Source of the DNA: Ginglymostoma cirratum
Lineage: Eukaryota
Direction: 5' to 3'
NCBI GenBank assembly: GCA_024137785.1
Contig: JAHRHZ010000069.1
Span: 8,350,093 to 8,414,092 of the forward strand
DNA length: 64,000 nt
The notes beneath the pieces were generated by a model that saw only the letters and a program-made list of their open reading frames with translations, was not told the origin of the DNA and made no database searches. Numbering within the stretch: position 1 is the first letter of the stretch; every line of letters starts with the position of its first letter. Below are positions 16,616 through 51,958 of this stretch, piece by piece. Made by a program: the position numbers and the translations under genes.

Positions 16616-16765
16616 TAATGGTGTGGAGCTGGAGGAACACAGCAGGCCAGGCAGCATCAGAGGAGCAGGAAAGCTGATGTTTTGGGCCTGGACCTTCCTT
16701 CTACTGTGTTACTCCAGCTCCACACTATGTTATCTCAGACTCCAGCATCAGCAGTTCTTACTATC
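16616..16765. mobile_element. Penelope-like palindromic mini-element, family A (centre deleted)
   Basis: Inverted arms gtgtggagctgg..aacacag / ctgtgtt..ccagctccacac. 16-bp TSD TCATTCCATTAYGTTA at 16600-16615 and 16766-16781. Confidence 0.8.
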
Positions 16766-18164
16766 TCATTCCATTACGTTACCCTTTCTCGATTACTTTC
16801 AAAAAAAAAAAAAAAAAAAATCTGAATCTGATTCCACTTAGCCAGGTTACCTAACACTTTCCCCCCGCCCAAGACCTGCTATCTGAATGCTGGAGACTAT
16901 TTGCTTTACTTCATTTCTTGAATCTTCCACTTCATGTTATGTGACCACTTATCCACCTATCAGGACAGAATGAGCCAGGACTTAATTCGGGTTTAAATAT
17001 CAGGAAAACAAAAGCTGACCAAGTGCAAGGACTGAATGTTACTATTCCAGTTCATGGTAATACTGGACAAAATCAATGCTTAATGTAAGGCCTACCCTTG
17101 GATTTATCAAGCCTTCTTTCTCTTTTATCATGGAGGTCAGTCACTGAACACATTCACAACAGGCTGCCAACGTACTTTTCACAAAAGACAAATATTTCGT
17201 TGCACAAAGTTAAAACTAATGAACATTCTACATTTATCTAAAAGCTATTTGAAATTCCAAATACTGGAAAGAAAAAAGTTCAAGACTTTTATTGCACAAA
17301 CCTTATAGACACCCAAACTAGTCTCCATGCTAAAACTCACTGTTTAGCTGGCACAACTGTAGCCTGTTTTCTCTTGGCAATTTTCTGCCTTCACCTCATC
17401 TTATTTCCCAAGACCCTTGAACAAGCTGCTAACTCAGCTCACTCAGTACTGGACATGGGTTCCTTCAACCCATGTCTCCATCAGCCTTGTCAGTTGTTTC
17501 TCCTCTCAGACACGTATTCAGCCTCCTGCTTCTGGAGACTGCTTTCAAACAAATCCAAACTTCACCCAGCCCTGAAAGATTGTGTGATAATAACTACACC
17601 TGTTATTAAGGAACTCTTTTTGACTGAATTGGTTTCAGTCTTGTCCGGTATTCCCTTAGCTGGGATCAATAATCATATTTCAGAGTGAAACGTGATGTGA
17701 TAGATCGTAAGTTTTATTTTTGCCATTTAATTATCACAGGAGGGAAAAAGAGAAGAAAAAATGCCATGTATAAACCAGATCGTTTAGAAAGATAGGTACA
17801 AATACTTTACTCACAACATTCCTCTATGGACACAACCTCAGTGAAGTATCACTTCCACAGGTTGTTTCCTCGCTCAATTGATGAGGTCACAAGCATTTAC
17901 TTTTTGTGATTTTCTGCATATTCAAATATGTTTCCCCCCCACACCCCCATCTCTCCTAGAGGTATGCAGACAGAAGCTAACTCACTGACTTTTCTAATTG
18001 ACCGCTGAGGGGGGAAAAAAAAAAAATGGCATTCTCTAATCACTTTGGCCAGGATCTTTTATTCATAAATTAACCTGCTTCTGACCTTCATTTCAGTCGG
18101 TTGGAAAAGCTTAAATTAACAATTCTCTTACCACGTAGCTTATCCAGTCGTTCAGCTTAAGTCA

Positions 18165-18360
18165 CATGGTTAGCTCAATTGACTGGATGACTGGTTTGTG
18201 ATGCAGAGTGAGGCCAACAGCGTCTGTTCAAGTCCTGCATCATTTGCTGTTACCAGCAAGGACCGTCCTTCTCAACCTATCCCCTCACTTGAGGCATGGT
18301 GGCCTTCAGGTTAAACCTCCAATACTGGTCTCTCTCTAGGACTATGGCGACTTTACTTTT
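18165..18360 (+). mobile_element. tRNA-derived SINE, copy 1
   Basis: A-box-like ggttagctcaattg, B-box-like gttcaagtcc; homologous to 18980-19240. Confidence 0.7.
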
Positions 18361-18979
18361 CCATCCATTCCACTGATGGCGGCTAAATTAAAAAACAGCA
18401 TATCAAAAATCTCTTACTTGATGGAAAAAAAAAGCAATAAACACTACTTTGAAAACTACAGTTATAAAACACTTATTTACTAATGGAGTGAGCTGTGCTA
18501 CTGAAACTACCCAAATTACACTGCAGGATTGACATGAAAATGATGCGGATTTAACTGCTTCATAGTCACAGCCACAACTTTACGCTGAATTACATGGATC
18601 ATCTGTACAGGCAATCGGATCAAACACTTAAACGACAATTGAAATATCTGATCAGGATTCTCTTATTTTGGTCAAACCCAATATGACAGATCGGTGTCAA
18701 GTAAAACCTGAACGAAAATGTCTCTCATTTCTTGGAACTCTATGTCATGGAGAATCTGAGTGCTCACAGATCAATGTTAGAGAAAGTCTTTTGACCACAC
18801 AGCGCAAGTTAATTTGCAACCCACCTGTAAAATTAGCACGTGGAGTTAAATTTTGTTTACATAATCGGATCATACAACCAAGTCACCAGGACCACCGTTA
18901 AAATAAATGGATGGCCATCACGACACTAGTAGCAGTAAAATTGCTAATTATGCCAAATGCATTTCAATAAATGAACAGG

Positions 18980-19164
18980 CTGTTTAGCCCAGTTGGCTAG
19001 ATGTATGGTTTACCAAGCAGAATGATGCCAACAGCGTGGGTTCAATTCCCATCGCCAGCTGAGGTCACCACGAAGGACACTCCCTCTCAACCTCTCTCCT
19101 TTCCTGTGGTGTGGTAGCCTTCAGGTTAAATCATCACTAGTCGTCTCTCTCTCTCTCTCTCGCG

Positions 19165-19204
<40 letters not shown>

Positions 19205-19240
19205 ACAGCAGCCCCATGATGTGGTAAGGCTATGGTAAAA
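18980..19240 (+). mobile_element. tRNA-derived SINE, copy 2, with an expanded internal microsatellite
   Basis: tagcccagttgg...gggttcaattccc...ccttcaggttaaa shared with copy 1. Confidence 0.7.
19144..19200. repeat. Compound microsatellite (TC)n(CG)6(CA)14
   Basis: Directly visible. Confidence 0.95.
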
Positions 19241-20737
19241 ACAATTGGACATGTACAGAGGCTGACGACAACAATGGATGAACTGTCTGGCAGCAGTTAA
19301 TTTGTTTTCAACTAAATCTGTATCTATTTCGCGCGAATACTTGGCACACAATTTCCCATTACCCTTCAAGCTTATCCAAGCAGGACAAGGGTCTGAGAGA
19401 GGTACAGAATCTCCAATAAGACAGGACCTCCTAATTTCCTATCCCTGCTACAACTGTAAAGAACTCCTCTTAAAGAATACAAGTTTAGGAATTTACAACA
19501 TCAGGCCTTTGGTTGGTAATGAATGCAACTTTGACAGCTGTAAGAAGCAGAAAGAAGTTACTCAATAAAAACTCAAACTTATATACCACTGTTTAATTGG
19601 ACAAGCTTTTTTTTTAACACATTCAGTTATCAGCCATTTCGCGGCCTCCCACGATTCGAGTATTCTTACGATAACATTGAGTATTTGGATGGTACACTGC
19701 ATTAGGACGCTGGACTGGAACCTGTAGAACTGGTATTGATGGGACACTACGTGAGATGCAAATTGACAATTCTCATCTTAGGAGACCTCAAAGCTAAACC
19801 AAAAAAAAAAAAGTCCTTGACTAACAGTCCAAGAATTACCCATAAAACATATTCAAGTACCATATTTTAAGTTAGATTTCACTAAATGCATTTTATTTCA
19901 CAGATCTACATGTGACAGAGCTGTAATAGCCTATCCATTCAGTAAACTGTACACTTGTGGGGGAATTGCAAACATATGCCCGTAGATGAACTGTGACAAT
20001 CAAATCTCCCAAACGGATATCGTGTTCAATTCATCAGGGAAAGAGACTAACACCATTGGACAAGGGACCATTTCAAAATGGAAAGGAAGTTGTACAAAAT
20101 ATTAATGGGACATCTGGGCAGTGTCATACAACAGACATGAAGTAGCTCTGAATAATGAGGTATGTAAGGAACAAAATCCTTTACTGCACCAAGGAATCTC
20201 ATCAATTACACTTAATTATATCCATCTGCAGTAGTTGCCAAACTGCTGTATTTCCTAAAGCTGTTATTGATTTTTTTAGCTATGTTAATACCTGTCAAAG
20301 CAGACATTGTACATAAAAAGGAGACAGAATGTGTTTTGTTGTCACAGTATCTCACTTGCTTCAGCTGCTAACTCCAGAATAAAAGTTACACAACTGAAAG
20401 TTAACATAAACGAATGGCAGTATCACCCACAAACAGGCAAGGCTATATCTCACCTTTGCACTGTCCATTTTCTCCCATGTCACTAAGCTGATACCATCTG
20501 CCACCTTGATTTGGCTGCTCTTTCATGTGCAAGACAGGAACAAAAAAAAAGTGCAAATTCCTCACAAATGTGTCTGTGTGTACTATGTTCATGTGGACAA
20601 TTGTTCAGTCTTCACTAAAGAGTTGCTGCACTAGAGTAGGATCTTATTACAAAAGGAAGGTCACTCCAGCACATTGGGTTTGTGCTGATCTTGGAAAGCA
20701 TGTCGGGGATGTGCTGGTGTTGAACTGACATAGACAA

Positions 20738-20900
20738 GGTCAGAAAAATCACATGATACCAGGTTATAGCCCAACAGGTTTATTTGAAAACACAAGCTTT
20801 TGGAGCCCTACTAACACCTGAAGGAGGAGCAAGGTTCCGAAAACTTGTGTTTTCAAATAAACTTGCTGAACTATAGGCTGGTGTTGTGTGATTTCTGATC
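20738..20900. mobile_element. Penelope-like palindromic mini-element, family C
   Basis: Inverted arms aaatcaca..ccaggttatag...gtttatttgaaaacacaag / cttgtgttttcaaataaac...ctata..ctggtg..gtgattt. Central decayed hammerhead CTGAAGG-A-GGAGC-AAG-GTTCC-GAAAA at 20818-20843. Confidence 0.75.
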
Positions 20901-21035
20901 TTTGAAAAAATTGTTTCCTTCATCCCGGTTCCCTGTTTTCCTTCTAATTAAGATGTTGCATATTAAGTATATATAGATGGGAGCCAATAGTGGCCAACTA
21001 CTTGCACGTCCTGATACAAAAACCGGGTCATGGAA

Positions 21036-21350
21036 ATGACCATGAAGTATCAGATGGAATCCGATGGAGATGGTCTTGCAGAAAAAGGCAGTGCATCTTC
21101 AAGAATAACACCAGACCAAGACAGCGCCTGTAGAAGAGGCTGCCTCACCAAGGTAGTCAGAGATCTGATCTGTGACATGTGATTTTGCTCCCTTTGAAAG
21201 TTATGCAATGGAATTGCTGAAGGTCTTGAAAAACATGCATGCACTCAAATTCAAAGAGTTGGTGCATACATCTTTGCTAAGAGAGACAAACTCAGCAACA
21301 TGCCTGTAGTAGCAAAAAAGACAAATGTTGCCATTAAGAAAAAAAGTTAA
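21036..21350 (+). pseudogene. RPL36: Processed pseudogene of 60S ribosomal protein L36, antisense in the GRM intron
   Basis: Frame-shifted translation MTMKYQM..DGLAEKG...RRGCLTKVVRDLICDM / FAPFESYAMELLKVLKNMHALKF / RVGAYIFAKRDKLSNMPVVAKKTNVAIKKKS* aligns end-to-end with eL36 (MA.RYPMAVGLNKG...RRGRLTK...[55 protein letters not shown]). Intronless, with frameshifts. Confidence 0.85.
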
Positions 21351-24049
21351 AAGCAGATGATTATTGACACTACAGCGTGTGTTGTAGTGCCATGAGCTAT
21401 ACACTTGCAATGTCTCACTTTGTGACTAAATCTAAAGCTGACTAAAGATCAACTTCTGGCAACCTCCTTGTTCAACTTGTCAGTTTAACATTTTATTGCC
21501 TTTCAATTCTAGATCTAATCCCAGTTATGTGAATTTGGTGAAGCCATTCAACTTACTGACAAACTGAATATCCAGGCTTCAACATAAACAATGCAAAGGA
21601 AGCTCATTAGACAGGGGAAATATGAACCCAGCTGGTGGATTTGCTACGCTGGAGCTTGAAGTGGTAAAAACGAAATGAAAAGTTTATCATTTTGATATTT
21701 AAACTATCCATATATTGATGCAGTTCAAAGAGGTCTTACGCCAAAGGCCACACATGCAGGTTGTCAGATTTTCAGGATGCCCGCTGAAATGATTGTTGTC
21801 AGTTCCAAGCTCAGACACCACTTTCATTGCAACCCAATTGCACCAGTGAGTGAAAAGAAGCAACAAAAACCTAGCCTCCCACTACACCTTGATGTTATTC
21901 AGTTTAGAGAACATGGTACTTTTAAAGGAGTGTGCAAAACCCTTACTAGTAAAGTTACTAAGTTGTTCTGCAGTAAAGCAGGTATACATCATAAAGCTAT
22001 TGGCCAGACATTGAGAAACTCCATGCAAGCCATGAGATCTCATTGGCCTCTGTTAGAAAATTGATTCTGTGATGCTGTAACTGCATACCAATCATGGTAT
22101 GGATTCAGTTTATCATCAAATTGCAGCTGGAAATGTCATATCTGAAAATCATACTTTTCAGAGATGTGTTTGGTGCAGGCACTAGACCCTGCTACAGTGC
22201 CAGATCCCAAAACAACCTATTGTGTCCCCTCACAAATCAAAAACACAGGATGAATCAATATCGACAACTTTTAATCTACTCAGCAAGCCTAATCCATAAG
22301 TTAAAATTGAAAATAATCAGCCATTCCAGAAGTTCCACTAACAACCAAATCTTCTTTTTGATCTAATTACGATACACTAGAATGTAAAATGAGTATAACC
22401 AGGAATTTCTTCAAGTCTAAAAATTCAAGTCTTAATTCATTTAACAGCCATTTAAATCTACAATAAATGAGGTTTTATACATTTTATCACCAGTCATTTT
22501 TTACACCAAAATCTGAAGGAACATTCTGTACACTAGGTTCCAGTAAGAATAATCTTGGAAACACTTCAAATTTAAAAAGCAAATGAATGGCTTTCTTTCC
22601 TGCAACACCTGTAAACACAGCTTACATTATTAAGCTGCCCCCAAGCGTCCAATAGCAAAATTCCAAATGAACTAGTTATTCTATGTTACAAAAAGACCTA
22701 CTTCCACACTAGCATATTGGAGGTTGCCCATTCTAAACAAAGTGATGAGTTTTAAAGAACTGTTCACAATATTTGGTCAGACCACAGTCATTGCCAGTCT
22801 TTAGTTGTACTGATAAAGGTGGACTTCTTTCTAGAATAACCCCTGGAGAAATCACATCATGTACCTCAGAATTACGCAGCATAGGAGATGACCATTGGCT
22901 CCTTTATGCTCAACAGACTATGTGAAAGGGCTATCCAGTTAACCTCACTCCCTTGCTTTCTTCTCCATTTCCCTAACTTGGCATTTACATTTAAATGTCC
23001 AATTCTTCATCTTAGAATAAAACTGATAAATTAATGTGCACCTGACCACTAAAGACTGTTGAGTTTGATGAATCATGTAAAGGTTAGTCCACCATTGTAT
23101 TTTATTACAGGCAACATAAGAAAGTTTGCTTTGGATTCTAACGAAGTTTCTTTAAGAACTTTAAAGAAAAAAAAAAGAGACCAGAGAAAATAAGTTCAGT
23201 GTAATGTGTTGCTGAGGAGGGTGGATGCGTAGTTGGGTGGTGAAACTCAAAGAGAGGCAGGAATCATTTAACTGACTTCTAAAGGAACATCCATTCACGG
23301 GCTGAATAGCAACAACATGAATTGTATTATGCTCGATTCCTGGTGTCCACATTCTAAGGGATGTCAATGCAAAAGTCCAATATCAGCTTGACATTGCCAT
23401 GTACCCAGCTAGCACTGAGCTTTACAGTGGTGCTTGCCTATATAATGACTCTGAACCACTTACTGTGGACTGCCATAGACATCGGTAAAAAAGTGTTTTT
23501 TTCCTTTTATGTCTTTTGCAATTTAGCTCTGGGAATATATTCCAAGGTTTCTGTTCTTTTCTTGAGGAAAAAGAAAACTAATTCTTACAAATAACCACAC
23601 GAGAGCATTTTCTATTGAAAATGTTGCATTCATAGTAAACGTTTCTTTCTTTAGGGAAGAGCCACCATGTGACAGACTTTTATTTCTGTAGTCTCTTTCA
23701 TGGTTTACTGTTTGTTGTCTCCCAGGAGGAGACTATAGGTTTGCTTGATTCAGTACACAAAGTTCTCAGTGAGTGGACTTTCCACACTATCAGATAACGA
23801 CAGTGTGTCAAGTGGGCGATGGACGAAAACATGGTAGGGGATCAAAATTATTGGACCAGGTAGAAATAAGGAAACCAAGATTGCGTAAAAAGGAAAAAAC
23901 AGCCGCAATTTTCACAATCCCAGGATGCTTCACAACCAATTAAGCACTTTCGAGGTGTCTTCACTGTTGCAAGACAGAAAGGAGCAAGTTGCTAGATACA
24001 GCTGATCATTGGACAAGCCCAAGGCGTAGAGGAGGGGAAGCTTTTATAA

Positions 24050-24530
24050 CATGTTCAAAAGTTCAACTCCTGAACACATCCTAGAATGGAGTTCAGAAAA
24101 GTAGGTGCAAAAAGCTCAACAGAATTCATGAAGGATGACTTAAAGAAACTTCAATAATATTCTACGCTTCAACATAGGAAGTAGCTTTTCAACTGACATG
24201 TATACATTCCTTCAAAAGTGGGTACATGTCGCTATTCTGGTACTAAAAAGATTCAGCACTCATGGTCAGATTTTGAAGATGCAGCTAAAGGACTTACGAC
24301 CAGAGCAGAAAATAATAGCTCGATCCTACTAATTTATATACAGCAGGTGAAGAAAGAATCTATGGAAGCAGAACCCAACTTAAATGTGTTGAATACATGG
24401 CCATCAATGCACGACAGGAGCTTCACATTTCTTGAAGAAAATTGCACAATAATTGATGATTCATTTCTCCAAATAAAAGATCTCAGAATTCAGAACAATA
24501 TATTTCCTTCTGTGGACACCCATTCTTAGT
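24050..24530 (+). pseudogene. Unidentified fossil coding-like segment
   Basis: 103-aa ORF with protein-like composition, extended upstream in frame through stops (EFMKDDLKKLQ*YSTLQHRK*); no family assigned. Confidence 0.3.
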
Positions 24531-26439
24531 AATCGGGACTCGAGAGGTCAGAAATGACACCAACAAAACAATGTACAGTTCTCTCCATTACTTTAACGAT
24601 ATGCTTCACCAGCAATCTGAGAAGTACACAGTTTCGACTAAACCAGTCTAACCAATCCAGCCTCACCACACAGTCTTTGCATTGATCCTTTTAAAAGGAG
24701 GTCAATAACCCAATGCTAAAATTGTTGCCACTTTGCTTCTGCAGAACTACATCTACTCAGAATTATTTTGCACTGTTCTAAGTAATTTTGTTTTTAATCC
24801 ACCTTGTCTGGATCAAAATCAATAAAATTGAGGCACTGGGAAGCAACAGACTGCTTGCATTCAGCATCAGAAGCATGAATTCTGTCTGAAAGGATATTAA
24901 CATTTTGTGTCTCTGATATATTAACCACTAACAGCAAATAAACAAATGAGAGACCTTGCAATTGGAGACCTTAAAAGTGTGTTTCGGTCTTCAAGATAAA
25001 AGTTCTTAGTGTCTTTAAATGAGTCTGATCAGCCACTCCACTTTCAATCAGGAGGTTCAGTTCCTTCATTCCAACACTGAGATCTTTGCTTATAGGTTTA
25101 CACAAGCAGTTTTGACATCAATACAGACAGAAGAATTTATCGCCGAAAAAGTTGGCTCAAAAAAAGTGTGAGAAAAATATTGCAACGGAAAATTAGACTC
25201 TGGAGACAGGAAGCTCATGCAAGCAAATCTGTGGTAGCTCATCTGCAGATTTAGTTATTATTATTACTAAAAGAAACCGATTACTTCTTGAAACCTACTG
25301 AAAATGCTCATCTTTGTTCCATTTATTTGCATGAGGTTTTCTACTCTGCCTCCCACATTCAGCTTGCTGTGGTGCTGCACTTGTGTCATTATTGATTCTA
25401 ATTTCCCCCATTATTTAGCTAGCTGACAATATTTTCCTAATCCCCTTCTTCCCCAGGGAGATGTATAAATTTCCTTGATAGTAGCAATGTGCATTGGTTG
25501 GATCTGATTGCCCTCACTGACGTCATTCAAACTCAGTGTGAAAGGCTTCCACAAGCATTCACCTCCAATCTTGCAATATGATTTCTACTGAAAAACATTA
25601 CGACATGTAATGGAGTAAGCTAAGAAGACTGTTCTGTTTTCAATAACAGTGTTTGTGCATGTTGAACACAATGAGCATTCATGTTTGAGTTCTCTCTCAT
25701 TTTCAAGTCACACAATTCTTATTTGACTAGCTGTCACGAACATCACAATCTACCGTTTGCAATGCCAAAGGAGCAGAATTTAGTTTGCAACTTCTTCTAA
25801 TGCATCTCTTTTTTAATTTGTTAATAAAAGCTTTAAGTCCAGTCATTTGGTCAAAACAAGGAGGAAATGGTTAACAGTGCATCTCTTCCTCATGCGTAAA
25901 GTAAACTCAAAGTCACCAGTGCCAGACAAAGTCTTTGACAATTTTTATAAATTGAGCTACAAGTCCCAGATGGAGGGCACGTTTTCTTCGGCGGATCTCT
26001 TGTAGGTATTGCAAACATGGCATAACCAATTAATTGGCTAATCAGTTCTCCAGGACAAACTAAGTTACTGTTCAAATTATTGGGTAGTCAACCTCCTAAA
26101 AAACAGGACACGTTTGCCTCAATTTAGTTACAGGTCTAAAATTAGGCCAACAGAACCCATACTGCACAGAAGTGGTGTATGCATACCTTGCCTTTAAGGG
26201 AGTTCATTTTTTTAAAAAAAAAAAGAGACAATTCATTATTGGCTAAGATAGACACAGGGCAAGTAACCAACATACTATCCATTGCAAATTCTAAAATATG
26301 CACCACAGACATGGCAAGCCTTTCACTGTGCAAATCCCTCACCAGTTTCACATTTAGGATCATTCATGCCAGGGTGGAATCAATCCACTTGGATGTACTG
26401 ATGTGCAACATCATAGGCACTACTGGATCAACAAATTGC

Positions 26440-27430: not shown

Positions 27431-27731
27431 GGCAATCAATGGCACTTCCATACCAAGTCACTACATATGATCTGGAACACTTCAAATTACTAGTTAGAGA
27501 CATACAATTACTGGCTATTGTAAACAGGTAAACTTTCTGTTGGAAAAAGAACAGGATGTATTGTGTACCTGGCCTATAAGAGAAATTAGCATTACGGAAC
27601 TCAGGTGCATACAATGTTGTGATTCTGCCCGATACCTTTCTGCAGTGCGTAAGCAAGCTGCACACGCTCAGTGAATAGTTGCCTGGCTGTATTATCACAC
27701 CACTGTTTTAAATTACACAACCCACGAAGTT

Positions 27732-27937
27732 AAAAACTGCAGATGCTGAATAATCGGAAACTACTGGAAAAGTTCAACAAGCCTGGCAGCAACTGTGGAG
27801 AGAAATCAGAGTTAACGTCTTGGGTCGAGTAACCCTTCCTTAGTCTGGGTCACTTGACCCGAGATGTTAACTCTGATCTCTCTCCAAGGATGCGATCAAG
27901 GCCTCCTGAGGTTTTCCAGCAGTTTCTGTTTTTGGTG
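27732..27937. mobile_element. Penelope-like palindromic mini-element, family B
   Basis: Inverted arms ggagagaaatcagagttaac..gggtc / gacccg..gttaactctgatctctctcc. Degenerate 12-bp TSD ACCCACGAAGTT (27720-27731) / ACCTATGAAGTT (27938-27949). Confidence 0.8.
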
Positions 27938-29260: not shown

Positions 29261-29269
29261 AGCATCATT

Positions 29270-29590
29270 GGCAACTCTTTGAATAGTACTGCAGATCACA
29301 TCCAAATGCAACAAGATCTGGAGAGCAATCAGGTTTGGGTTGATCAATGACAAAAATAGAAATTGCTGGAAGAGCTCAGCAGGTCTGGCATCATCGATGG
29401 AGAGTGTGTGCAGGTCGAGTGACCCTTCCTCAGAATTGGGTTGCTCAGTGGCCAATAATATTCTTGCCACATAATTATCTGGCAATGGCTACCTCCAATG
29501 GGATTACCACTACACCACTATTAATATTTTGAAACTACTGATGACCAGAAATCCTACTGGACTAACCACATAAGCAGTACGGTTACAAAC
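29270..29590 (+). mobile_element. LINE RT fragment carrying a nested family-B Penelope-like single arm (29350-29435)
   Basis: atgcaacaagatctggagagcaatcaggtttggg (MQQDL..IQ.W) continues after the insert. The insert is flanked by a 15-bp TSD TTGGGTTGATCAATG / TTGGGTTGCTCAGTG (29335-29349, 29436-29450). Confidence 0.7.
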
Positions 29591-32682: not shown

Positions 32683-33236
32683 AAGATAACAAGGTGTAGA
32701 GCTGGATGAACACAGCAGGCCAAGCAGCATCAGAGGAGCAGGAANNNNNNNNNNNNNNNNNNNNNNNNNNNNNNNNNNNNNNNNNNNNNNNNNNNNNNNN
32801 NNNNNNNNNNNNNNNNNNNNNNNNNNNNNNNNNNNNNNNNNNNNNNNNNNNNNNNNNNNNNNNNNNNNNNNNNNNNNNNNNNNNNNNNNNNNNNNNNNNN
32901 NNNNNNNNNNNNNNNNNNNNNNNNNNNNNNNNNNNNNNNNNNNNNNNNNNNNNNNNNNNNNNNNNNNNNNNNNNNNNNNNNNNNNNNNNNNNNNNNNNNN
33001 NNNNNNNNNNNNNNNNNNNNNNNNNNNNNNNNNNNNNNNNNNNNNNNNNNNNNNNNNNNNNNNNNNNNNNNNNNNNNNNNNNNNNNNNNNNNNNNNNNNN
33101 NNNNNNNNNNNNNNNNNNNNNNNNNNNNNNNNNNNNNNNNNNNNTTCCTGCTCCTCTGATGCTGCTTGGCCTGCTGTGTTCATCCAGCTCCACACCTTGT
33201 TATCTCAGATTCTCCAGCATCGGCAGTTCCTACTAT
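32683..33236. mobile_element. Penelope-like palindromic mini-element, family A, centre replaced by a 400-N gap (32745-33144)
   Basis: Near-perfect inverted arms either side of the gap. 15-bp TSD CCATGATTACAATTT / CCATGATTAAGATTT (32668-32682, 33237-33251). Confidence 0.85.
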
Positions 33237-33677
33237 CCATGATTAAGATTTTATATATTAGTCACTCACCATAGATTTCGTTGCATATTTCCTACACTGT
33301 TCTTTTCCACTTTTTGGAGCTCTATAGTGTTCCCCCACCCCCCACATAGGCACGACAGGTTTTTTGTTCAAAATAAACCCATACCCCACCTCTATTTTGC
33401 TACTAGTTTTTCTTTAAATCATCATGTTGTTATCCAAAACTAAAATTCATCTCCAGCTCCCTAAGGCAAGCAAACAAACAAACCTCCAGGAGCTCAGTAA
33501 TCAATAATTACATTCACATACCAATGGAGTTAGGCTCCTTCAGCTGTACAATCTCTTTCGTATGCAAGACTGAAGATTTCAGGTCAATTCTGCTCTTTGG
33601 CCTTTCTCAAGCTCTTCCACGATCAGCTAACACTTTGCACGATTGAAACTTGAACCAGGAAAGTGATACAAGAGCAA

Positions 33678-33772
33678 TAAAAACAAACAGCTGGAAAGCT
33701 CAGCAGGTCTGGCAGCACCCGTGGAGAGAAATCAGAATTAACATTGCGGGTCGAGTGACCTTTCTTCAGAAC
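33678..33772 (-). mobile_element. Family-B Penelope-like single arm
   Basis: ctggaaagctcagcaggtctggcagc..gtggagagaaatcaga..aac..gggtcgagtgacctttcttcaga; the minus strand carries a decayed hammerhead motif. Confidence 0.75.
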
Positions 33773-35689
33773 CATGTGCTATAGAACAGCACCTCAATTG
33801 CTCTGTCAGGGAGCAATGCAACTTAAATTGTAACTGAGAAACAAATAAGATCGCTTAGGATATCCAACTGCATTGAATTTACTGTAGGTGTTTTTCTGGG
33901 AATAGGTAATTTTGCCAAATATTAATTCTATCCAATTACCAACTGGTCCTTGACACATACAAAGACCTGGTCCAGCGTAATTGCTGCATGGTGACGCACG
34001 GGCAACTGCCACACAAAGGCTTTGTGATATTTCAGCTTTTTGACATGCTAGTGAATAAGTACGGATGAGGCAAATGAGCTAGGTCAGTAGCTGGGTTAGT
34101 TTGTGTTGGATGAGATTTGATTGGATCACAGGATGAGGAGGAAGACAGACAGGTGGAGAAGTCTACTTAGTTTGCGACAGGATATAGACAAATTCAGGAG
34201 GATGGAGGAGGCTGGGGTGAGGTGGTGTGGTCAGGTCAGGGCTTGGGATAAACTGGGTCAGTTGTTTTGTTGCCTCAGAGTTAGTGGTTTTAATCAGTCT
34301 AACATTTCCTAGGTATTTATCCAGGCAAATATCCTAAATCAGGATTGTACAAAGTCTGCAACTCACACACAGAGGATTCTCAGGAGCAGGGAAATTATCC
34401 ATTGGAAGTTCAAACTTGCACAGCAAAGGGGATAGATTTGTCCGCTAAGACTTCCACGGGGTCCCAACTTGCATCTGACTATCTCCAGTCTCTGAAGTCC
34501 AGAGTTTGGAACATTTCGGTCCCTGTTGTTCTTATTGTCTCATGACACCTTAGGTTACCACCCTAGATGAGAATTTTCCCACGTTTGTCTGACACAGAAA
34601 CTGCATTGTACATTCAGACAAGCTCTCCTTTTTGTGTGTGTTGACTGAAAAAGACACATTCCTGCATTATGGTTGAAAATTGCAGTAGTGTACTTAATGA
34701 CTACACTTTTCTCCCGAAAAGCTACGACATACAGAATAGAATTTTAAATAGATGGTTCATGCAGCATTCGATCAAACTAATCAATGCTTCACTTATTTAA
34801 CAGACTTAACAATTAGTAAACTAAATTTAAGCTCAACTCCATAAAACATACATTAAACCCAAATCCATTCCAGACCTAAAAAGAGAGTCTCAAAAAGGTG
34901 TTACAAGGACAAATAAAGCAACTGGTGCCTGGCAACAACAAAATGGGGTCAAAATTAAAGGAATTTCACTCCGTGATGAGGGTTACAGCATTCCAGATGT
35001 GTTCTCAGCACAGGAGCTAAAAGAATCTCAAGTTTAGGATTCTTGGCAATTTCAGAGTAGCCATTCTTTAGGGTTGTCAACTGGCATATGTTGACAATCA
35101 TTGCTAAATCTGGTCACTGGATAAGTGACAGATGTAACAGGTTTGACTGATTTATCCTCCTTCTGGCATTAAAGCAGATCACAGCATATGACACTGCCAA
35201 TAGACTAAGATTGATCAATCTAATGAAGACAGAATCAAACCAAGCATGACTCTGCCCTTCACAATTGAGCTCTACAATACTAATAGCACTTACACCTACT
35301 TAGCTATCTCGGTGCCATACATCAAAATGAAGAAATCTGACTGGGTCAAAAGGGAATGCATCCATCTCTATCTTTTTCATACACCACATCAGAGTTCAGA
35401 ACAGTAACGAACAGCCAACAGTCAGCCGGAGTTTCAAGGTGCTCAATGTATAATAAAAGACAAATATAGACTGCGACTTTCATTCATTTCGATTCCAATT
35501 CATTATAGAGGTGCAGCAGTGGTGACCGCGTTCTGGTGTGTCCATAAACCCAAATAATCCGATCTCCAAAATTGGATCAACATGAAAAGAGAGACTTTTA
35601 ATTTTACAAAGGAATACAGAACATTCCGAAAGAATCATGCTAAGTAATAACCTCCTTGCTGTTGAGTCTGCAAGCGCCAGACCAGAAAC

Positions 35690-40125: not shown

Positions 40126-42899
40126 CTACTTTAATAAAGGCTGTGTTTACAGTGAATGGCACCACAAGGCAAAGCAACCAGCGTGCACATGGAGGAACAC
40201 ACACAACACCACCACCTGGCTATGCAGTGGCATGCTGCCAAGAAAGTTGCATGCGCACCTGTCAAGCACAACTGTGCAGTTTTGCTGCAACCTATATGCA
40301 TTTTCTCCACCCCATCACATGGTAGCACGCATGCTGCTAAAAGAAATAAAGTGGATCCAATATAATCAATTGATTCCATCATTTACTGAATCAGCTTTGC
40401 TTGTCACCTTTTCAAGTGAAGCACCATGGAAGAGACCACTGCACGCAAAAGATGGCATTAGCAGAACACAAGCTGACAAATGCCGAATCCCATTGGCATC
40501 AGCTGAGACCACCAGCCTCATCGGTGGCCATTTTGGTTTTGAGTAATTATTTTACTAAAATTACAAACTTATTATTTCCCACATAAATCTGGCATAGAAT
40601 TGACAGTATAAAAGAGTTGCTAGACAAATTGTTGATGCAAATCCAAAACATAAGAAACGGTCGTAGGCTATTCAACCCCTCAAGCCCATAGCATCAATTT
40701 GAGCATAGCTGTTCTGCAGCTTAATTTTTCCATTGTCCCATACCCTTTGATACAACTGGAAAGAAAGAGAACTAATGCATATAGCACTGAGGCAACTCCT
40801 TCCCTCAGGTGCTGTGAATTTAACTTTATTCATTGCCTAAACAGTCTATGACAGCTGCAGCAACGATGTATGCATTTGGCACAGCAGCAGGATGTTTGGG
40901 AATGGGAGTTTTAACAACCCCAAGTGGAACATCAGCCAAGCAAGCAATTTACCGGCAGCTTTTGCGAACGCTGCAAAGCAATGAAATATATTAGTAAATG
41001 CTACAATCTAAGGGCTTTTTTCTTTTCAAAATCTGTTTTTCAAGCTATGACAGTCCATTTGCCTTACATCTCAAGGTTCCTGCGTTGTTTAAGCTCACAT
41101 TAAGAGACACTTGCAGGCTTTGTCCATTATCAAAAAGCAAATTTGGCCAATCATTTTCTGGGTCATCTGCTGCCACCCTGAAAAGTTAATTTTTTTTCCT
41201 TCAAAAATTGAATAAAAACCATCTGTTATGAAAACCACAGCGAAAAACTTTTGACCTGCCATTCCTTTATGTGGGACATTTAACGTTACTGAAACCCATC
41301 ACTATTCTTTAAACTCAACCCAAACTGAATTAGTTTCGAGTCCATCCACGTGGCAGTCAGAAACGACAGAGCGGAAGTATTCAGATTACACTGCAAACAC
41401 CCGACTCCAGCCCCATGCTTGTGATCTCAGATTCTCCAGCATCTGCAGTACCTTTTATCTCTGTAGAGAGCAATGCTGAAATACCTGTAAGCGCTACAAT
41501 GGCATCGAGGCTGAGCTTCTCGCTGCAAAATGCATGTTGGGGTTATACAAGACTAGTTGATTCAAACTCCAAGTTGCTATTGACACCACACACGCGCGCA
41601 GATACACACATACACTGAAATATTCATGCATTTTATTTTTAATCCAAACCAGCTAGCCTGCAACAGATGGAATTCTGGTTGGAAACAAATGGAACGATGA
41701 CAAATGGATTGGTAATTCTCTTTCACAAAATGAGTGGGGGAAATTAAACTGTCGATTTATGCTCTGGTTAGCAATTCGAAAGCCAGAATGGTTAAGTGGC
41801 GGTTGGAAAAAAACATAACCTCGTTAGAACACAAGGCAACACAATGAAGAATTTAATTTGGAACGTAAATCATGAGATAACTACATATAGCAAGCCAGAA
41901 CAAAAAAAAAAATTCCCTCACGATTGGGATTTTTGTTTGATCCAAATCCATGTATAACCCGGCAGAGGATCCTAGCGACATAGGACGTTAAGCAGAAAAC
42001 GCAACAGGGAAGAGGAGGCCTGTTAAAATCCAAAACCCTCTACTAATCTCTACTGGGGAGAATCAGACTGTGAAGACTGTCACTGTGGAGATTGATTGCG
42101 GAAGATATGGAAAAAGGAGGATACAAAAATCAGCAAGCATTAGAAAAGAAAAAGGGAAACGAAGCATTTTTTTTAAATGAATGCATTCATCAGTCATCCA
42201 GCAAAAAAAAAAATCGTTTTATGACTAAGTTTACAGCTGAATGAAATTCTCTAGGGACCAGCTAAGATTGCATGGTTCAGATGTGATCGAGAGTTAATGC
42301 GAACCTCACCTTGGGTATCATCAGTGCTTTAATTCCCATTGGGGACACAGAACATACCCAGAGAACAGCACCTCACTGCGACACTCAGCAATTAACCCGT
42401 TCAGTACCAGCCAAACGTTGTTGGCATTGAATAGCGAATAACTTCAGTGTGTGCAGCTGAAGAGGCATGGAAGCAATTGGTGCAGACATGACGGTATTAT
42501 GGACTCATGCCGCGTATTGACCAAACTATCCTAGATTTACTTTTTATAAAGGTCTGAAAATCGTTCATTATATCAAGATAGCGATTGATTTGAATTTGGC
42601 AGACAGGCAGATCTGGAGCCTAAAAGCAACGTGAAATTCAGAATCACAGCAGCGTTACAGCTGTTCGGCCCATCGTGCCGAGACCAGCTCATTAAAATGA
42701 TCACGACCTCGTGCCAGTCTCCTGCCTGCCCCATACCGTCCCCCACTATTTGGACCCAAATAATCATCCAATTCCCTCTTCAAAATGTTTAAAATAACGA
42801 GTGTACACCAACGATACACATGGATCAAAGTTTTCTGGAACAGGGCAGCGACACTAGATTTTTCTTCTCCCCCCCCCCCCCCCCCCAAATGCAATTTAC

Positions 42900-45800
42900 A
42901 TCAATGCAGGTCAGTGAGCTGCCTGTTTAAAAAGGAGTAGCGATCTGCATCAGTGTGCTTGATGACATTACTCCTAACTCTACCCTATGTTGCCGGCGCT
43001 CAGTGTGATACAGCTATCCCAGCCTCCCTGCGGGGAATATGGCGAAGCTGTATGTGACACGTGCTTTTTCTTTAAAAAAAAACACAGAGCCCCGGCTCAA
43101 AATTAACCCTGAGAAATTTGGGGGCGGGGATGGAATGGAGGAGAATCCTTCGTTATCCATTTTAACGTGGTGGCGACAGTCCAGAGAGGTCTATCCCCTC
43201 TCTGCATCGGAGGCTTCCGGCTGGCTGAGAACCATCTCGTGTTCGTGATATTTCCCCCATTCCGCTCACAACCCTACCGTGGAAGTAATTTAATGAGAGA
43301 TTATGTCATGCCTCTGTGATTACACGTCTCTTGGACAAGCAAACAAAAAGGGCAAAGAAGCCTACAGATTTTAAAAACAGCGTTTCCAAAAATATCAAGC
43401 CTCCCTCTTCCACGTCCTAGCTGGGGGGGGGGGGGGGGGGGGGCTGTGATCAGAGTTTCATGTTGCTTCATGGCCCCACGCACACACATCTTGATCTGTC
43501 TACGGTGGAACCAATACGCAGCCCAAGTCGCGGGTTATTATTTCTGGCGGTGTTATAATCTCCATTTGGATTCCCTATTCAACGTATGGGCTCTGTTTCT
43601 ATAAATATTGTCATGCACTATTCAACAGATCTCCAGTGCCCATCTAGATCGTGCACCGCTCCCTCACCGGCATTGGGAGGCAGCTCGCAATTAGACCATT
43701 TCGCTGGGCACAGTGTACATTCCTGCTGCTCACTTCACTCGTGAGGAATTCGGCCACTCAGTACAGATGCTGGCCCAGCTCACTGTGCGACAAATCGCCG
43801 ATGAAACCGTCAGCTTGTGGATGCTGTGTCTAAATTTTAAAGCGCAGCTCTTCTCTCCGAGAGTGTAGCCGCAAAGGTTAATAATATCACTTAGCCAGTG
43901 CTCCCGCATACAATTTACCCCTCTCTCTCTTTCTCGGTGCGTCCCCTTTCTTAAAAAAAAAAGGGAGGCAAGTGAATACAGCTGGACACGAGGCGTTCTT
44001 GAGATATGTAAACTCTCTGCCTTCAAGTCAGAGCCAATGTTTTGATTACTTGTTTCTAATCATTTTCGAACACGTTCCTTTATGCACGCACATTACATAA
44101 CGGAAAGCTCTCACAGTTTACAATAGAAAACGGGTACAAATTTGTTTTTAGTTACCAGTAACGCTGCTAAAACAATTAACGAGAAATTGGAGGGGGGTTG
44201 GCGGTGGAAGAGAGATTTAAATTATATAGCGAGTGCGAGGATTATGGATGAACTCCCAAGAAAGAGGCCAGCAGCGTTAAATCTTAATCTGGGTTTCTGC
44301 TTCAGAGCTCACACATTGAGGAGTGCAACCCTGTCAGCAGTCTCAACGTACAGTAAAGCAGGAAGGAGCCCAAGTGTGTGTCTGGGTCTGAGAGAGAGAC
44401 ATGGCTACACGCTCGAATCCCCCTTCCTAAAGGGGGTTGAGAAAGGGCGTTCCTCCTACCTTGAAGAGTCTCAGGATCTTGGCCACCATGATAGACACGG
44501 AGCTGGACGAAGCCCCAATAACGCCAACTATCCTCTCGGGCTTGACAAAGATCGGGGGTTCCCCATTAGTGCACCTCACATCCGTGGTGTCCTTCTGAAT
44601 GTGAGTCTGAACAAAAGTGAGGGACTGCTCTAGAGCGTAGATGTCCTTCGAGCAGGTATCTAGGATGTGAGCCCCCAGCGTAATGTTGGGCAGGAGGTCC
44701 GGATCGCTGTTGATCTGGTCCAGGGCGTAAAGCATCGCCTCCAAGCGATGGATTCCCTTCTCCTTCTTGAGGTCCCCGCAGGGTGTCCCCTTAGGCCCTC
44801 TGGCGTGAACTGGGAAAAGGCCACCCAAGGTGAGCTCTCCTTCGATCCTGATAGAGTGAGTGGTGTAAGGCTCCTGAGCGGTACTCAGCCCGTAACACAC
44901 CGCGACCCAGAACAATCTCCACAAGGCTATCCCTGAGTAGACCATCGTTCACTTCCCTGCTGCTGCTGCTCCCTCTCTCTCGGAGTTGCAATTCCAACTT
45001 CAGTTCTTAAAAAAGGCACCTCTTTTTAAAATGTTGAACACTAAAACCAGCAGTCCTAGCAGGCAGGGCAACCGACTGGGGGAACGGCATACTCCTGGCT
45101 TTGCCTTGAGAAGATGACATAGGTTTCGGAGATCCTCACCACCTCAGTTGCTCGGTTTCCAGTGAGGAGCCCATTGAAAGTTGGACAGTTGTTGAAATAA
45201 CGTGATCCATTCTTAGCTTGGGAAGGAGAGAGGAGGGGAAAGACCCGCCTCCCCCCACCCCTCTCCCCCCCCACCGCCACCAACCCACGCCAAGGCGCCT
45301 GTCACCCACAGCGGTGGGTTTGCATGGAATTTACACCCAGCCCCCTCCTTCCTCTTTTTCTTCCTCCCTCCCCTCTCTCCCTTCCCCGCTTATGGAGCGT
45401 GTGCGATCGGCGTGATTCTGATTACAAGCCGCTCTCTGCAGTAGCCCTCCATCCAGTTCCCCGGTCGCTTCGATTCTACCAGTGAAAAGACTCTCGCACA
45501 ACAGAGTTGGGGGGGGGGGGGGGGGGGGAGGAAAAAGCAAGAGAGAAAAAAACCCACAAAGAATTCAAGTGGCTTCAGCTGAAAGCAATGACGCCGTGTA
45601 CCAACTCCACCCAGTATCACTGCAGTTAGCAAAGCAACAATTCAAGGCGCTTGAGCGTTACGAACCCTGCTCCCGGGGAAAATAGACACCATTAAACCAC
45701 TGATACAGAATAACCTTTCAACAGCCTCCCGAGACATTAGAGGCTCCCCTTGCCCGAAACAGCCCCCTCCCTCCCCAGAACTGTCAGACAAGCATCGTTA

Positions 45801-46560: not shown

Positions 46561-47200
46561 CTCCAACAAAGCTTTGTCTGATTGGATTTCCCTGTAGCCA
46601 ATTAACAGTATCTCCTCTTTGTCAATTAAAATGATTACTTCGGCAATCAGGAACATTTGAACCTATCAACCGTAAATGGCCACTTTTCAAAGGGTTCCAC
46701 TTACCAAGTGAAATAACCAATACAAAATATCATTTTGAATACGAGATGACGGCTTTGTTCCTGTAACTTTTCTCCATCTCTGCCTTCATGCTGATAAACT
46801 GTTTTCCCCATTTTTACACTGGTCTGTTGAAAGCTAGTCGCAGTGGTGGATTCTGCCGTGTTTCCTGTATCCCTGTTGTATCTCGCTTTTATCTCAAAGT
46901 TCTGTTAAACATCTTTCAAAAATTAACTTGAAATAGAGCTTTTTTAATACGCCCACGGAATTCCGTTTAACTAGAAGTAAGACGTAAGAAATTGGGGAGG
47001 ATTAAAAGATAGTATTTGCAAAGAAGCCTTACAAATCTAAGACGTAGACATTTAAAATACTCACAGTTTCAAGCAACATAATTTTAGTAACTGGAAATTT
47101 TACTTCGCTGTCAAATAAACCAAACTGTATTGCTCGTACCGGAATAGGGTGTCGCATGACCCGAATTCAAGCCACACATGCCTGGACTGTGTCTATTATC

Positions 47201-47343
47201 TGAGGTCTGAGGAAGGGTCACTGGACCCGAAACGTTAACCCACTTTTCTCCTTCACAGATACTGCCAGACCTGCTGAGCTTTTTCCAGTAACTTTGTTTT
47301 TGTTCCTGATTTACAGCATCCGCAGTTCTTTTGGTTTTTATTT
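47201..47343 (+). mobile_element. Family-B Penelope-like mini-element with intact hammerhead core
   Basis: TSD GTCTATTATC at 47191-47200 and 47347-47356 (13 bp with 1 mismatch); body matches family B. Confidence 0.85.
47203..47240 (+). ncRNA. Minimal type I hammerhead ribozyme motif
   Basis: CUGAGGA (47207-47213), extra A, stem II GGGUC-ACUG-GACCC, GAAA, palindromic ACGU stem III, GUU cleavage triplet. Stem I is weak in this copy; activity untested. Confidence 0.65.
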
Positions 47344-47435
47344 TGCGTCTATTATCACGTCCAGCTGGTTACTTGAAAACACAACAGTTAATAATTAGGA
47401 ACAAACAACTTACCAGTACCTTCACTGATAGCATT

Positions 47436-47822
47436 AAAAACAGAAATTGCTGAAAAAGCTCGTCAGGTCTGGCAGCGTCCGTGGAGAGAAATCAAGTTAA
47501 CGTTTCGGGTTTTACTTTATTAATAGGTTTGGTGGGAGGGTTTAATTGATATTTTACATGTTATATTACCTGATAGTTGAATAGTTTCTGTAACTCTTAA
47601 GTTAGAGATGGTAGCTTTCAATTCTCCCCTAGTAACAAATTTAGAGTCATTTATGTGTCTGCCTCTCTTATTACAAGTCTGGTCACACTTTCCAGACAAA
47701 TTTAAAGTGTCACGGACGCGTTCTGATATATTGCAAGGCAGTTGGAATTTGAAGAGTGGACGCGAAAACGTTAGCTCCGCTGTTCCTTGACAGATGCTGC
47801 CAGACCTGCTGCGGTTTTCCAA
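47436..47822. mobile_element. Two opposed family-B-related arm fragments (47436-47512 and 47765-47822)
   Basis: aaaacagaaattgctg..tcaggtctggcagc..gttaacgtttcggg and aaacgttagctc..cagatgctgccagacctgctg. Confidence 0.7.
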
Positions 47823-48462
47823 CCTCGTTAGCCTATAGTCGGTGACATTACCACATACTACAAGAAGTCTGGAGGTGGGGCTTAAGCCGCGTCTCTTAGC
47901 TCAGAGGTAGGGACACTATCGCCCCCATCGGCGAAACAATAAATTACACGCCGATGTGTGTTGTGTTCTCAAACGCGATTGTCCCGTACTCTTGGTAATT
48001 CAGAGCTTGGAATGACCGTACAGATGTTCAGATTGCAAATGCTTGTTGGTAAAAAGAGACTGAAAGACCAGAAGCTGCAGCTTTTACGATTTGAGCTTAA
48101 TAGAAATGATGTTAGTGACACTCCATAAAATCGCTTGGAGAACGTAAAACGTTAAGATCAATAGGAATTAATTGGATTTCGCGCTAGTGAGAAATTCCCT
48201 TTCAATGTGGTGTCCACATATTCCCCGGTCTCATCAGGAGTGCGAATCTCAGTTGAAATGGTTTGAATTGCGTTCACAAGATCATGAATAATACATCTAT
48301 ATGTTCAGGAGCTGAACTACTGTTTCTTACAATCGTACAAAAATAAGGATGAAATTAGATGAGTTTGTTATTCTCCATGGTCTTTAGAGTGTGAATTTCT
48401 GTTCCCTAAAAGCCACTGGTTGCTGGATCCTTAAATTGATTCCAGGCCTAGTAGAACAGATG

Positions 48463-49221
48463 AGATAACAAGGCGTTGAGCTGGATGAACACAGCAGGCC
48501 AAGCAGCATCAGAGGAGCAGGAAAGCTGACGTTTCTGGTCTGAAACCTCCTTCAGAAGAAGGGTCCAGACCCAAAACATCAGCGTTCCTGCTCCTCTGAT
48601 GCTGCTTGGCCTGCTGTGTTCATCCAGCTCTNNNNNNNNNNNNNNNNNNNNNNNNNNNNNNNNNNNNNNNNNNNNNNNNNNNNNNNNNNNNNNNNNNNNN
48701 NNNNNNNNNNNNNNNNNNNNNNNNNNNNNNNNNNNNNNNNNNNNNNNNNNNNNNNNNNNNNNNNNNNNNNNNNNNNNNNNNNNNNNNNNNNNNNNNNNNN
48801 NNNNNNNNNNNNNNNNNNNNNNNNNNNNNNNNNNNNNNNNNNNNNNNNNNNNNNNNNNNNNNNNNNNNNNNNNNNNNNNNNNNNNNNNNNNNNNNNNNNN
48901 NNNNNNNNNNNNNNNNNNNNNNNNNNNNNNNNNNNNNNNNNNNNNNNNNNNNNNNNNNNNNNNNNNNNNNNNNNNNNNNNNNNNNNNNNNNNNNNNNNNN
49001 NNNNNNNNNNNNNNNNNNNNNNNNNNNNNNNACACAGCAGGCCAAGCAGCATCAGAGGAGCAGGAAAGCTGACGTTTCTGGTCTGAAACCTCCTTCAGAA
49101 GAAGGGTCCAGACCCAAAACATCAGCGTTCCTGCTCCTCTGATGCTGCTTGGCCTGCTGTGTTCATCCAGCTCTACACCTTGTTATCTCAGATTCTCCAG
49201 CATCTGCAGTTCCTACTATCT
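48463..49221. mobile_element. Family-A Penelope-like palindrome, duplicated across a 400-N gap (48632-49031), inserted into a CR1 tail
   Basis: Inverted arms with central tcagaagaagggtccagacccaaaacatc (decayed hammerhead). 15-bp TSD CTAGTAGAAYAGATG (48448-48462, 49222-49236). The CR1 tail continues to about 49350. Confidence 0.85.
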
Positions 49222-50809
49222 CTAGTAGAATAGATGTTTGTTGGACACCAGAGTCTAGGGTTATGATGACAGGATTGGAGATCATAGCCATATCAGGCAT
49301 GATCTAATTGAATGGTGGAGCAGACTTGATGGGCTGAATGGTCGACTCCTAAGCCTGATATAAAAATAAGGCATATATTGAAAAATATACCTACAGCTAA
49401 GGGATGGTCTACTTAACTCATGTTCCCAAACCTTCATCTGTTTATCAATGTACCATTTAATGATAATGATCAGTAGATTTAATTCAAGTTCTCATCTAAC
49501 TATTTTTCCCATGAGCAATTGTTGGGATTTGAAAGTGCTTTGGTTTAGCAATTAAATGCAATGTTGTTCTATCAGGGAAGAACAGAATGCTTCCACCCAT
49601 TAACTCCAGGGAGAACTTTTTTAAAGTGTGTTCATTGTAACTTGTAAATCTCCTTTTATATTTAATGTATTCCATTGTTCTGTGTATGCTAGATCATGGT
49701 TATACCTCAGCTGCTTTGGGTGGGAAAGAGTTAACACAGGCCAGGGCTTATATAATTCTTTTCTAAATGTAAATTATGCTTGTCTTTTTGGTGTTCATGT
49801 CTCTTGCAGAAGTCAAATTATTGCTCGTTGATGGAAGATACATTTTCCTTAGAAATTTGCTCACCAGGTCCCTAATACGGTACATCAATGAAATGGCGTC
49901 ATTCTTGTCAGTCTAAGTTGCTTGATATCTTTTTGTGTGCATCTGACAAGCAAAAGCAATACAAACCTACCCTTTTGGTTATCATCAATTTACGGAGGCA
50001 ATACTGCCATATTTTATTCAGTAGCTCAATAATGATACCAGGATGCCCTCATGTGGATAAAAACAATCAACTCAGTTTAACTTTCCACGAACAAGTTGTA
50101 TAAACTAATATAAAAAGCATACGCTGGTTGGAAGTCTGAAATAAAAACAGAAATGCTGATAACTCATTGACATGAAACAATAATTTTATTTCACTCTCCA
50201 CAGATTTGCAGAGTATTTCCAACATTTTTTTTTTAAAATTAACCCTATAAACTAAGTTGCACACAAAGATTACCCAAAAGTCCTCTGCAGTCTCTGTTAT
50301 TTTCATAGATTTACAAAACAGACTTTGGTTAGGTAAGCATTGCAAAAGATATGGCACTGAGATAAAGATCAGCCATAAATCTTTAAAGCATAGTGAAGGT
50401 GCAGAATGATTCCTGTTAGTATATTGAGAGTTTTACAGTATTTTGTTTTCCTTAGAGGTTGCAAATGTAAGACAAAAGCATTCAGATGATGCTGTGACGT
50501 AAGTGAAATAATACCAATTAAAAATCATATGATAACGTTCTTCAAATGAGATAATTGCCCAAGTTGCCAAGTAGTATGATAATTATCCACACGTTAAATA
50601 AGGAGTGATCATTTATGCAGTCGCAGGCCCAAACTTTGCTGAGAGCAAGAGCAGGTTGTTAATGTCAGCTGACACTGAAAGGCTAATGATTGTGTTGCAA
50701 TCATTGCAACTTTACTGAGCAATATTCAGTAGTTTATTGTCAGGAAATAAACTGCCCAGTTTTAATTTAATGATTTGTGGTTTTTAAAAAAAAGAGTATG
50801 ATCTGGGTT

Positions 50810-51220
50810 TGCATCTGTACCCATTGCAATTTATAAGAATGAGAGACGACCTTTTTGATACATACAAGACACTTAATGGCTTGTCAGGGGAGATGGAGAG
50901 GGGTTGTTTCCGCTTGTGGGAGAGACTAGGACCAAAAAGGATAATCTCAGAATAAAGAGTTACACGTTTATTACAGACATGTGGAGGAATTTCCTCACTC
51001 AGACGACAGTGAATCTGTGGAATTCTTTACCTTAGAGGCTGCCAAGGCTGGCTCGTTAAGTATATTCGAGGCCGAGATAGACAGATTTTTAATCAATAAG
51101 AGCTATAGGGAAAAGGATAGAACGTGGAGTTGAGGTTCATCAGATCAGTCATAACCATTGAATAGCCGAGGAAGTTCAATGAGCTGAATAGCCCATATCC
51201 ATTACTATGTCTTATCGACT
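50810..51220 (+). mobile_element. CR1 LINE 3' end
   Basis: agaatgagagacgacct...gtgaatctgtggaattcttt...atcagatcagtcat..attgaat tail. Confidence 0.8.
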
Positions 51221-51742
51221 TGGATGCAACAGTGCTTTACAATATGCAAAGGCCTTGATGTATAAACTGTTAGGGATTAACACTTTTATTTGTGGAGTAC
51301 TTTGAAATAGTTCAATGTTTTGTCCTTAAAAGGTAGATATTTATTCTAAATTTTGTAAAGCTTTATGTAAATTAATATTGATCCAACACATGTATTACAT
51401 TTGTTAAAAAAGAACATAGAACAGTACAGCACTGTACAGGCCCTACGGCCCACGAGGTTGTGCCGACCTATTATCCTACTAAGATCAATCTACCCCGCAT
51501 ACCTTACATTATACTATCATCCATGTTCTACACCATTTGCATGGTGGCAGTGAACTGAGAGCAGGTAGCAACACATACACTGTCACAAATGTGCAGAGAA
51601 AGAAGATTAATCTGTCTTTAAAATTGACATAAAGGAGCCTTTAAAATGGTTCTCAAAAGTTAGAAGACTTAAATTCCACTGCAGCCAAAGCAGACAACCA
51701 GACTGAATTGACCGCAAAAATGTCATTAGATAATTCAAGGCA

Positions 51743-51958
51743 CAAAAACAGAAATTGCTGGAAAAACTCAGCAGGTCTGGCAGCATCTGTGAACAGAAAT
51801 CAGAACTAACATTTCAGGTCTGATGAAGGGTCACTGGACCTAAAATGTTAGCTCTGATTTCTCTCCACAAATGCTGCCAGACCTGCTGAGTTTTTTCGAC
51901 AATTTTTGCTTTTGTTTCTGGATTCCAGCATCCACAGTTCTTTCAGCCTTTTTTTGAG
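51743..51958. mobile_element. Family-B Penelope-like palindromic mini-element
   Basis: Perfect 12-bp TSD TAATTCAAGGCA (51731-51742, 51959-51970). Inverted arms with centre CTGATGA-A-GGGTC-ACTG-GACCT-AAAAT-GTT. Confidence 0.9.

Follow-up and report, generated by a model that had tools for sequence, protein, structure and literature searches.

The hairpin repeats scattered around an mGluR7-like glutamate receptor gene's first coding exon in the shark Ginglymostoma cirratum are probably dead terminal stubs of Penelope-like elements (PLEs), pieces of roughly 100–140 nt from the terminal repeat (pLTR) that were set into the genome by the reverse transcriptase (RT) and GIY-YIG endonuclease of a parent element. 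Membership of the PLEs is judged from anatomy: the copies combine a minimal type I hammerhead core, an inverted and 5'-truncated pLTR, a tail on one side only and target-site duplications (TSDs) of variable length, and these features favour the Penelope pLTR reading among those offered by the original prediction. The same prediction had proposed families of non-autonomous, palindromic mini-elements, and here our analysis departs from it, since the palindrome is optional, its centre varies and the one-sided tail is the signature of an ordinary PLE insertion. The repeats are likely to represent a known kind of insertion, not a new class of element.

The window, by which we mean the whole stretch of 64,000 nt that was analysed, is vertebrate DNA with 39% GC and two gaps of 400 N. 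All twelve copies anticipated in it are present, each within a few bases of its predicted position, and they fall into three families (A, n=4; B, n=7; C, n=1) that together make up 2.5% of the window (Table 1). The description of the copies as palindromic is correct for six of the twelve, those with two arms; the other six are single arms or fragments. The arms were thought to differ between all families, yet A and B have homologous arms (63% over 79 nt, pairwise E 6e-5); the arm of family C is unrelated to A and B outside the core. Arms of the gap-free hairpins diverge by 9–21%, and the copy at 51743..51958 forms a DNA hairpin of −62.4 kcal/mol (z −12). Both N gaps fall within family A copies (32684 and 48463). 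At the second of these, positions 48489–48631 and 49032–49174 lie on opposite sides of the gap and are 100% identical, and this copy was likely duplicated across the gap by the assembly.

Table 1. Repeat copies and host exon, in window coordinates
Feature	Position	Strand	Remarks
Family A, two-armed	16616..16765	.	minus arm ~+3 to +84; tailed plus arm +59 to +127; TSD 16600-16615 / 16766-16781
Family C, two-armed	20739..20899	.	no tail and no TSD in window; core 20818-20846 (+), one core mismatch, 5-bp stem I
Family B, two-armed	27732..27937	.	tail remnant on left (minus) arm; weak 12-nt TSD, 2 mismatches
Family B, single arm	29347..29435	-	internal deletion; begins 2 nt before CUGA; TSD 29335-29346 / 29436-29447
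Family A, two-armed	32684..33236	.	centre inside N gap 32745-33144; right arm tailed; exact TSD of 9 bp (~16 with mismatches)
Family B, single arm	33677..33780	-	core at 33769 decayed; TSD no better than background
Family A, tail-only fragment	41418..41462	+	
Frame with first coding exon of mGluR7-like gene	44430..44948	-	host context
Family B, single arm with tail	47201..47346	+	sole perfect minimal core, 47207-47236; stem I only 1 bp; TSD 47191-47200 / 47347-47356
Family B, fragment	47436..47510	-	spans +19 to +94; no TSD
Family B, decayed fragment	47750..47823	+	no TSD
Family A, two-armed with tail	48463..49221	.	143 nt written twice across N gap 48632-49031; TSD 48448-48462 / 49222-49236
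Family B, two-armed	51743..51958	.	42-nt tail; core 51820-51849 (+), one mismatch; TSD 51731-51742 / 51959-51970

Positions within an arm are counted from the C of CUGA as +1, with the values for family A shifted by 2, and junctions were read by eye. Most 3' ends sit at one of two points in each family: +93 and +125–128 in A, and +94–96 and +137–138 in B; the exceptions are three decayed or deleted B arms (+81, +100 and +123) and a single A arm (+84). In five of the six two-armed copies one arm alone carries the tail, an extension of 33–42 nt (about 33–35 nt in A, 42 nt in B); for family C a tail was seen only as loose contig ends in other runs. The fold-back junction is different in each of the five two-armed copies where it can be read (~+3/+59, +1/+4, +1/+9, +18/+1 and +14/−5). 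A core at the centre of the hairpin, as predicted, is true only in part: at 16616 the right arm begins some 59 nt downstream of the core, the sole perfect core belongs to a single-arm copy, and the centre of the copy at 32684 is hidden in a 400-N gap.

Of 16 visible arm starts, 14 lie between about −6 and +19, i.e., at the 5' edge of the ribozyme; three of the 16 belong to old fragments, where later deletion may have shaped the end. Because these starts precede the predicted cleavage site at +30 by about 30 nt, the 5' end is not set by self-cleavage. Their clustering is tighter than random truncation would suggest and remains an oddity of these repeats.

TSDs above background flank six of the twelve copies, at lengths of 9, 10, 12, 12, 15 and 16 bp, each scoring at least as high as the top 0.4% of 600 boundary pairs drawn at random (length/matched: 16/15 at 16616, 12/11 at 29350, 9/9 at 32684, 10/10 at 47201, 15/14 at 48463 and 12/12 at 51743). 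Two of the six surround single arms (29347 and 47201). Seven copies had been credited with long duplications of 10–16 bp; the variability of length was confirmed, but the duplications at 27732 and 33678, plausible by eye, are not significant against background. For four of the twelve copies, family C included, no TSD was found.

Hammerhead cores were sought with a minimal descriptor modelled on Cervera 2014 (CUGANGA, bulge, stem II of 4–8 bp, GAAA, NN, UH). Across the window this gave a single perfect match (47207); allowing one mismatch brought the number to three (20818, 47207 and 51820), all within elements, compared with a mean of 0.3 and a maximum of 2 in 100 dinucleotide shuffles. In layout, the cores of all three families fit the published consensus for minimal PLE hammerheads, NNN CUGANGAH G..C GAAAN-palindrome-NUH, as drawn in Fig. 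S3 of PMC4209133. A perfect core is kept by one copy in twelve only; most are decayed, several through CpG-type changes around GAAA. Stem I is 1 bp long at the perfect core and 5 bp in the family C copy, whose core is broken. Stem II was held to be family specific and to show structural covariation, and neither claim is supported. Families A and B share a GGGUC-type stem II, B and C differ by two double changes seen by eye, and covariation across eight cores did not rise above shuffled alignments (66 of 500 reached the score; one pair changed on both sides), in an alignment that misplaces the family A stem II and holds two effective sequence types. An Rfam search returned no hammerhead at E up to 1, its 11 matches being generic hairpin models below the gathering score, and monomer folding of four 51-nt cores recovered stem II in all four and the three-way junction in none (z −1.8 to +1.3). 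The hammerheads of the window copies are likely to be inactive.

The stubs appear to be PLE-made, with the inverted arm arising at insertion, because the copies fit published PLE insertions point for point. The minimal type I hammerheads of metazoan PLE pLTRs (Cervera & De la Pena 2014, PMC4209133) agree with the window copies in their core, in the bulged base that precedes stem II, in the closing G-C pair, in the palindromic positions 15.2–16.2 and in a short stem I. A genome has thousands of them, solo or on opposite strands, a likeness to the present case, and short opposite-strand pairs 100–700 bp apart are described. Cartilaginous fish are absent from the rows of Fig. S3 and Table S1 of that paper that were consulted, and the cores in the window differ in being mostly decayed. 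Endonuclease-positive PLE insertions (Arkhipova 2013, PMC3846280; Craig 2021, PMC8557442; Frangieh 2024, PMC11167929), share the head-to-head inverted arms, one-sided tail of 30–40 nt, two fixed 3' ends and variable TSD. Such insertions are described with an inverted pLTR, an optional one-sided tail of 30–40 bp and TSDs of 8–10 bp, this length coming from passages on rotifers (PMC3846280; PMC8557442). By comparison, the window copies retain no ORF sequence, their TSDs reach 16 bp and their 5' ends cluster at the edge of the ribozyme.

The RT and GIY-YIG endonuclease of the parent element would probably write such stubs into AT-rich DNA. PLE biochemistry suggests that the target would be cut with a stagger and that reverse transcription would then begin at one of two internal start sites, leaving a tail or no tail (Frangieh 2024); that study reports cleavage of both target strands by the anole PLE protein, with two internal start sites of reverse transcription that define the tail (PMC11167929). 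From the copies themselves we infer that the cDNA would stop near the 5' edge of the ribozyme, and that the inverted arm would be added anew at each insertion, by a second priming event or by fold-back; how PLEs form their inverted ends is termed unresolved in those parts of the PLE literature that we cite. The hammerhead would be inherited from the parent pLTR, where it may cleave only as a dimer or with the help of protein. In the anole element, ribozyme cleavage needs protein and is dispensable for insertion in vitro (PMC11167929). The 5' boundary may perhaps correspond to a splice acceptor or a start site, as suggested by D. virilis, where the 5' end of helix I is also where an intron stops (intron 416–491, ribozyme position 496, in coordinate systems not proven identical). 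A bolder version, which we consider conceivable but rather doubtful, is that the stubs are a discrete product and not random truncations, the PLE RT starting at an internal site close to the RNA's 5' end and running off at a fixed boundary, be it a splice acceptor or a start site, just before the hammerhead.

The original prediction was right that the window holds no RT or GIY-YIG ORF: neither domain was matched in Pfam by any of its 343 N-free frames of at least 55 aa, and no ORF remnant adjoins any copy within it. A 33-mer of family A had no match in metagenome DNA, and arm translations, in a single frame each for A and B, found nothing in protein searches, all in collections poor in shark sequence. 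With the second A frame there were 2 and 17 matches, comprising 14 short gene models that span the repeat and three unrelated repeat proteins; in these same shark-poor collections, none of the matches has an RT or GIY-YIG domain. A 21-mer of family B matched no viral sequence, one metagenome and one genome; both matches share just 22–23 nt with the window and were dismissed as chance.

The families are highly repeated, because bins that hold elements have a summed contig depth of ~1e4 to 3e6 (with one exception at ~1e3) against 0–50 in most other bins, in all four runs compared, from four organisms, over positions 15500–32744; depth here is not equivalent to copy number. Long contigs about 92–96% alike enter three copies (16616, 20739 and 27732) from unique flank and reach at least 31 nt into them, and one long contig of another organism spans the whole copy at 29347–29435. 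As contigs of other organisms thus join unique flank to these copies, the four insertions are shared with at least one other organism and are old. No empty site was seen among the 15 contig joints listed for this region (15500–32744), 3739 others lying outside the listing. In loose contig ends of other organisms, all three families have an intact CUGANGA start and C also has a tail, at low agreement (0.41–0.57). Translations of family A are 72–90% identical to gene models labelled Rhincodon typus (six records looked up), and whale shark gene models run through family A palindromes, four models giving four different junction peptides (source checked for three of the four). The whale shark genome paper names Penelope among its repeats. 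Several observations count against the PLE reading: no linked RT or GIY-YIG ORF and no Rfam match were found, family C lacks TSD and tail in the window, arm starts are clustered, no empty site is among the listed joints, and TSDs exceed 8–10 bp.

The nearest alternative is that the copies are dedicated non-autonomous PLE mini-elements, short master loci giving rise to an RNA of ~130 nt that is mobilised in trans by PLE protein, as a SINE would be. The clustering of 5' ends at the ribozyme edge, the very high repeat depth and the lack of ORF remnants beside any copy all suit this, and the literature provides a precedent in known PLE-derived non-autonomous elements. However, the five readable palindromes share no junction, the cores are decayed, CpG-type changes included, neither a promoter nor a master copy was identified, and full-length parents would yield the same stubs (PMC4209133), so we regard dedicated mini-elements as improbable. 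Non-LTR retrozymes moving through small circular RNAs, the other affinity first suggested, are much less probable still. As described (Cervera 2020, PMC7229834; Li 2026, bioRxiv 10.64898/2026.07.22.740005), they are likewise non-coding, related to pLTRs, equipped with a type I hammerhead and present in vertebrates, including one chondrichthyan genome, and the window copies match their type I core, low GC and long TSDs. The likeness fails on tandem arrays and the canonical ribozyme: retrozymes consist of head-to-tail tandem units with canonical ribozymes and, in tested cases, circular RNAs, whereas the window copies are dispersed, inverted or single, none of the three rows from Tandem Repeats Finder in this window falls in an element, and the cores are minimal (GAAA-NN-UH) and not of the canonical form with a looped helix III. 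Furthermore, the arms stand head-to-head and the unit ends away from the cleavage site.

Short, high-copy hairpins might equally be expected of MITEs of a cut-and-paste DNA transposon. That reading is contradicted by TSD-flanked single arms, for six of the twelve copies are single arms or fragments and two of these (29347 and 47201) have a TSD of their own; the tail makes the ends asymmetric, TSD length ranges from 9 to 16 bp and is not fixed, and the ribozyme core lies on one defined strand. The original argument against MITEs, from long and variable TSDs, is upheld, and we think this origin very unlikely. A fold-back artefact of sequencing or assembly might be suspected where both N gaps lie within family A copies, one of them duplicated across its gap, but arms that differ by 9–21% in the gap-free hairpins, TSDs flanking whole units and contigs of other organisms that run from unique flank into four insertions leave it scarcely credible.

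Stubs of PLEs, our preferred reading, have consequences for annotation. Such hairpins belong under PLE ends, and not under MITEs or miRNA precursors; short-read assemblies break at them, and they find their way into gene models. These shark families are described in no paper found by our literature search; Repbase and Dfam lay outside it, and families from chondrichthyans may figure in supplements to the 2026 preprint. If the stubs are indeed a discrete product, shark genomes would hold 'strong-stop' insertions in enormous numbers, and the second-strand step of Penelope transposition would be recorded in their ends and junctions. Were the 5' boundary fixed genome-wide, thousands of copies would constitute a natural data set on how PLEs form their inverted ends.

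The copies at coordinates below 44430 probably lie within the first intron of an mGluR7-like gene, the first coding exon of which is encoded on the reverse strand (see table). In the two-armed family A copy at 48463-49221, positions 48489-48631 and 49032-49174 are identical (143 nt, 100%) on either side of a 400-N gap, and this repetition is likely to represent an overlap at the hairpin that was left unmerged. In the single-arm family B copy at 47201-47346 (+), six additional bases (47201-47206) separate the target-site duplication from the hammerhead core; they represent either a small duplication left by a restart or a minute inverted arm.

Other repeats and coding features in the window
Feature	Coordinates	Strand	Evidence
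mGluR7-like gene, first coding exon	44430-44948	-	ANF_receptor, E 2e-19; mGluR7 best PDB match, E 8e-76
SINE-like repeat, two inverted copies	52069-52372; 58067-58368		74% alike
Second tRNA-like SINE, two direct copies	18167-18337; 18981-19152		74% alike
Further repeat, inverted pair	50973-51215; 57765-58016		71% alike over ~250 nt
LINE-like frames and repeats	1849-2280; 28903-29295; 50816-50957	-; -; 	Likeness to LINE ORF2 C-terminal part
PF09004 match	60019-60288	+	E 1e-11

The inverted SINE-like pair resembles the shark HE1 tRNA-derived SINE. Contig depth over the direct tRNA-like pair was high in all four sequencing runs, depth being no measure of copy number. The ORF2-like pieces, for which Pfam returned no match, are presumably of CR1 type, and the PF09004 match probably marks the C-terminal portion of a LINE protein of the Rex1/Babar type and not ALKBH8.

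Translations of family A are present in six public whale shark gene models (P0001, P0004-P0007 and P0013), and hence protein sets are contaminated by this repeat.
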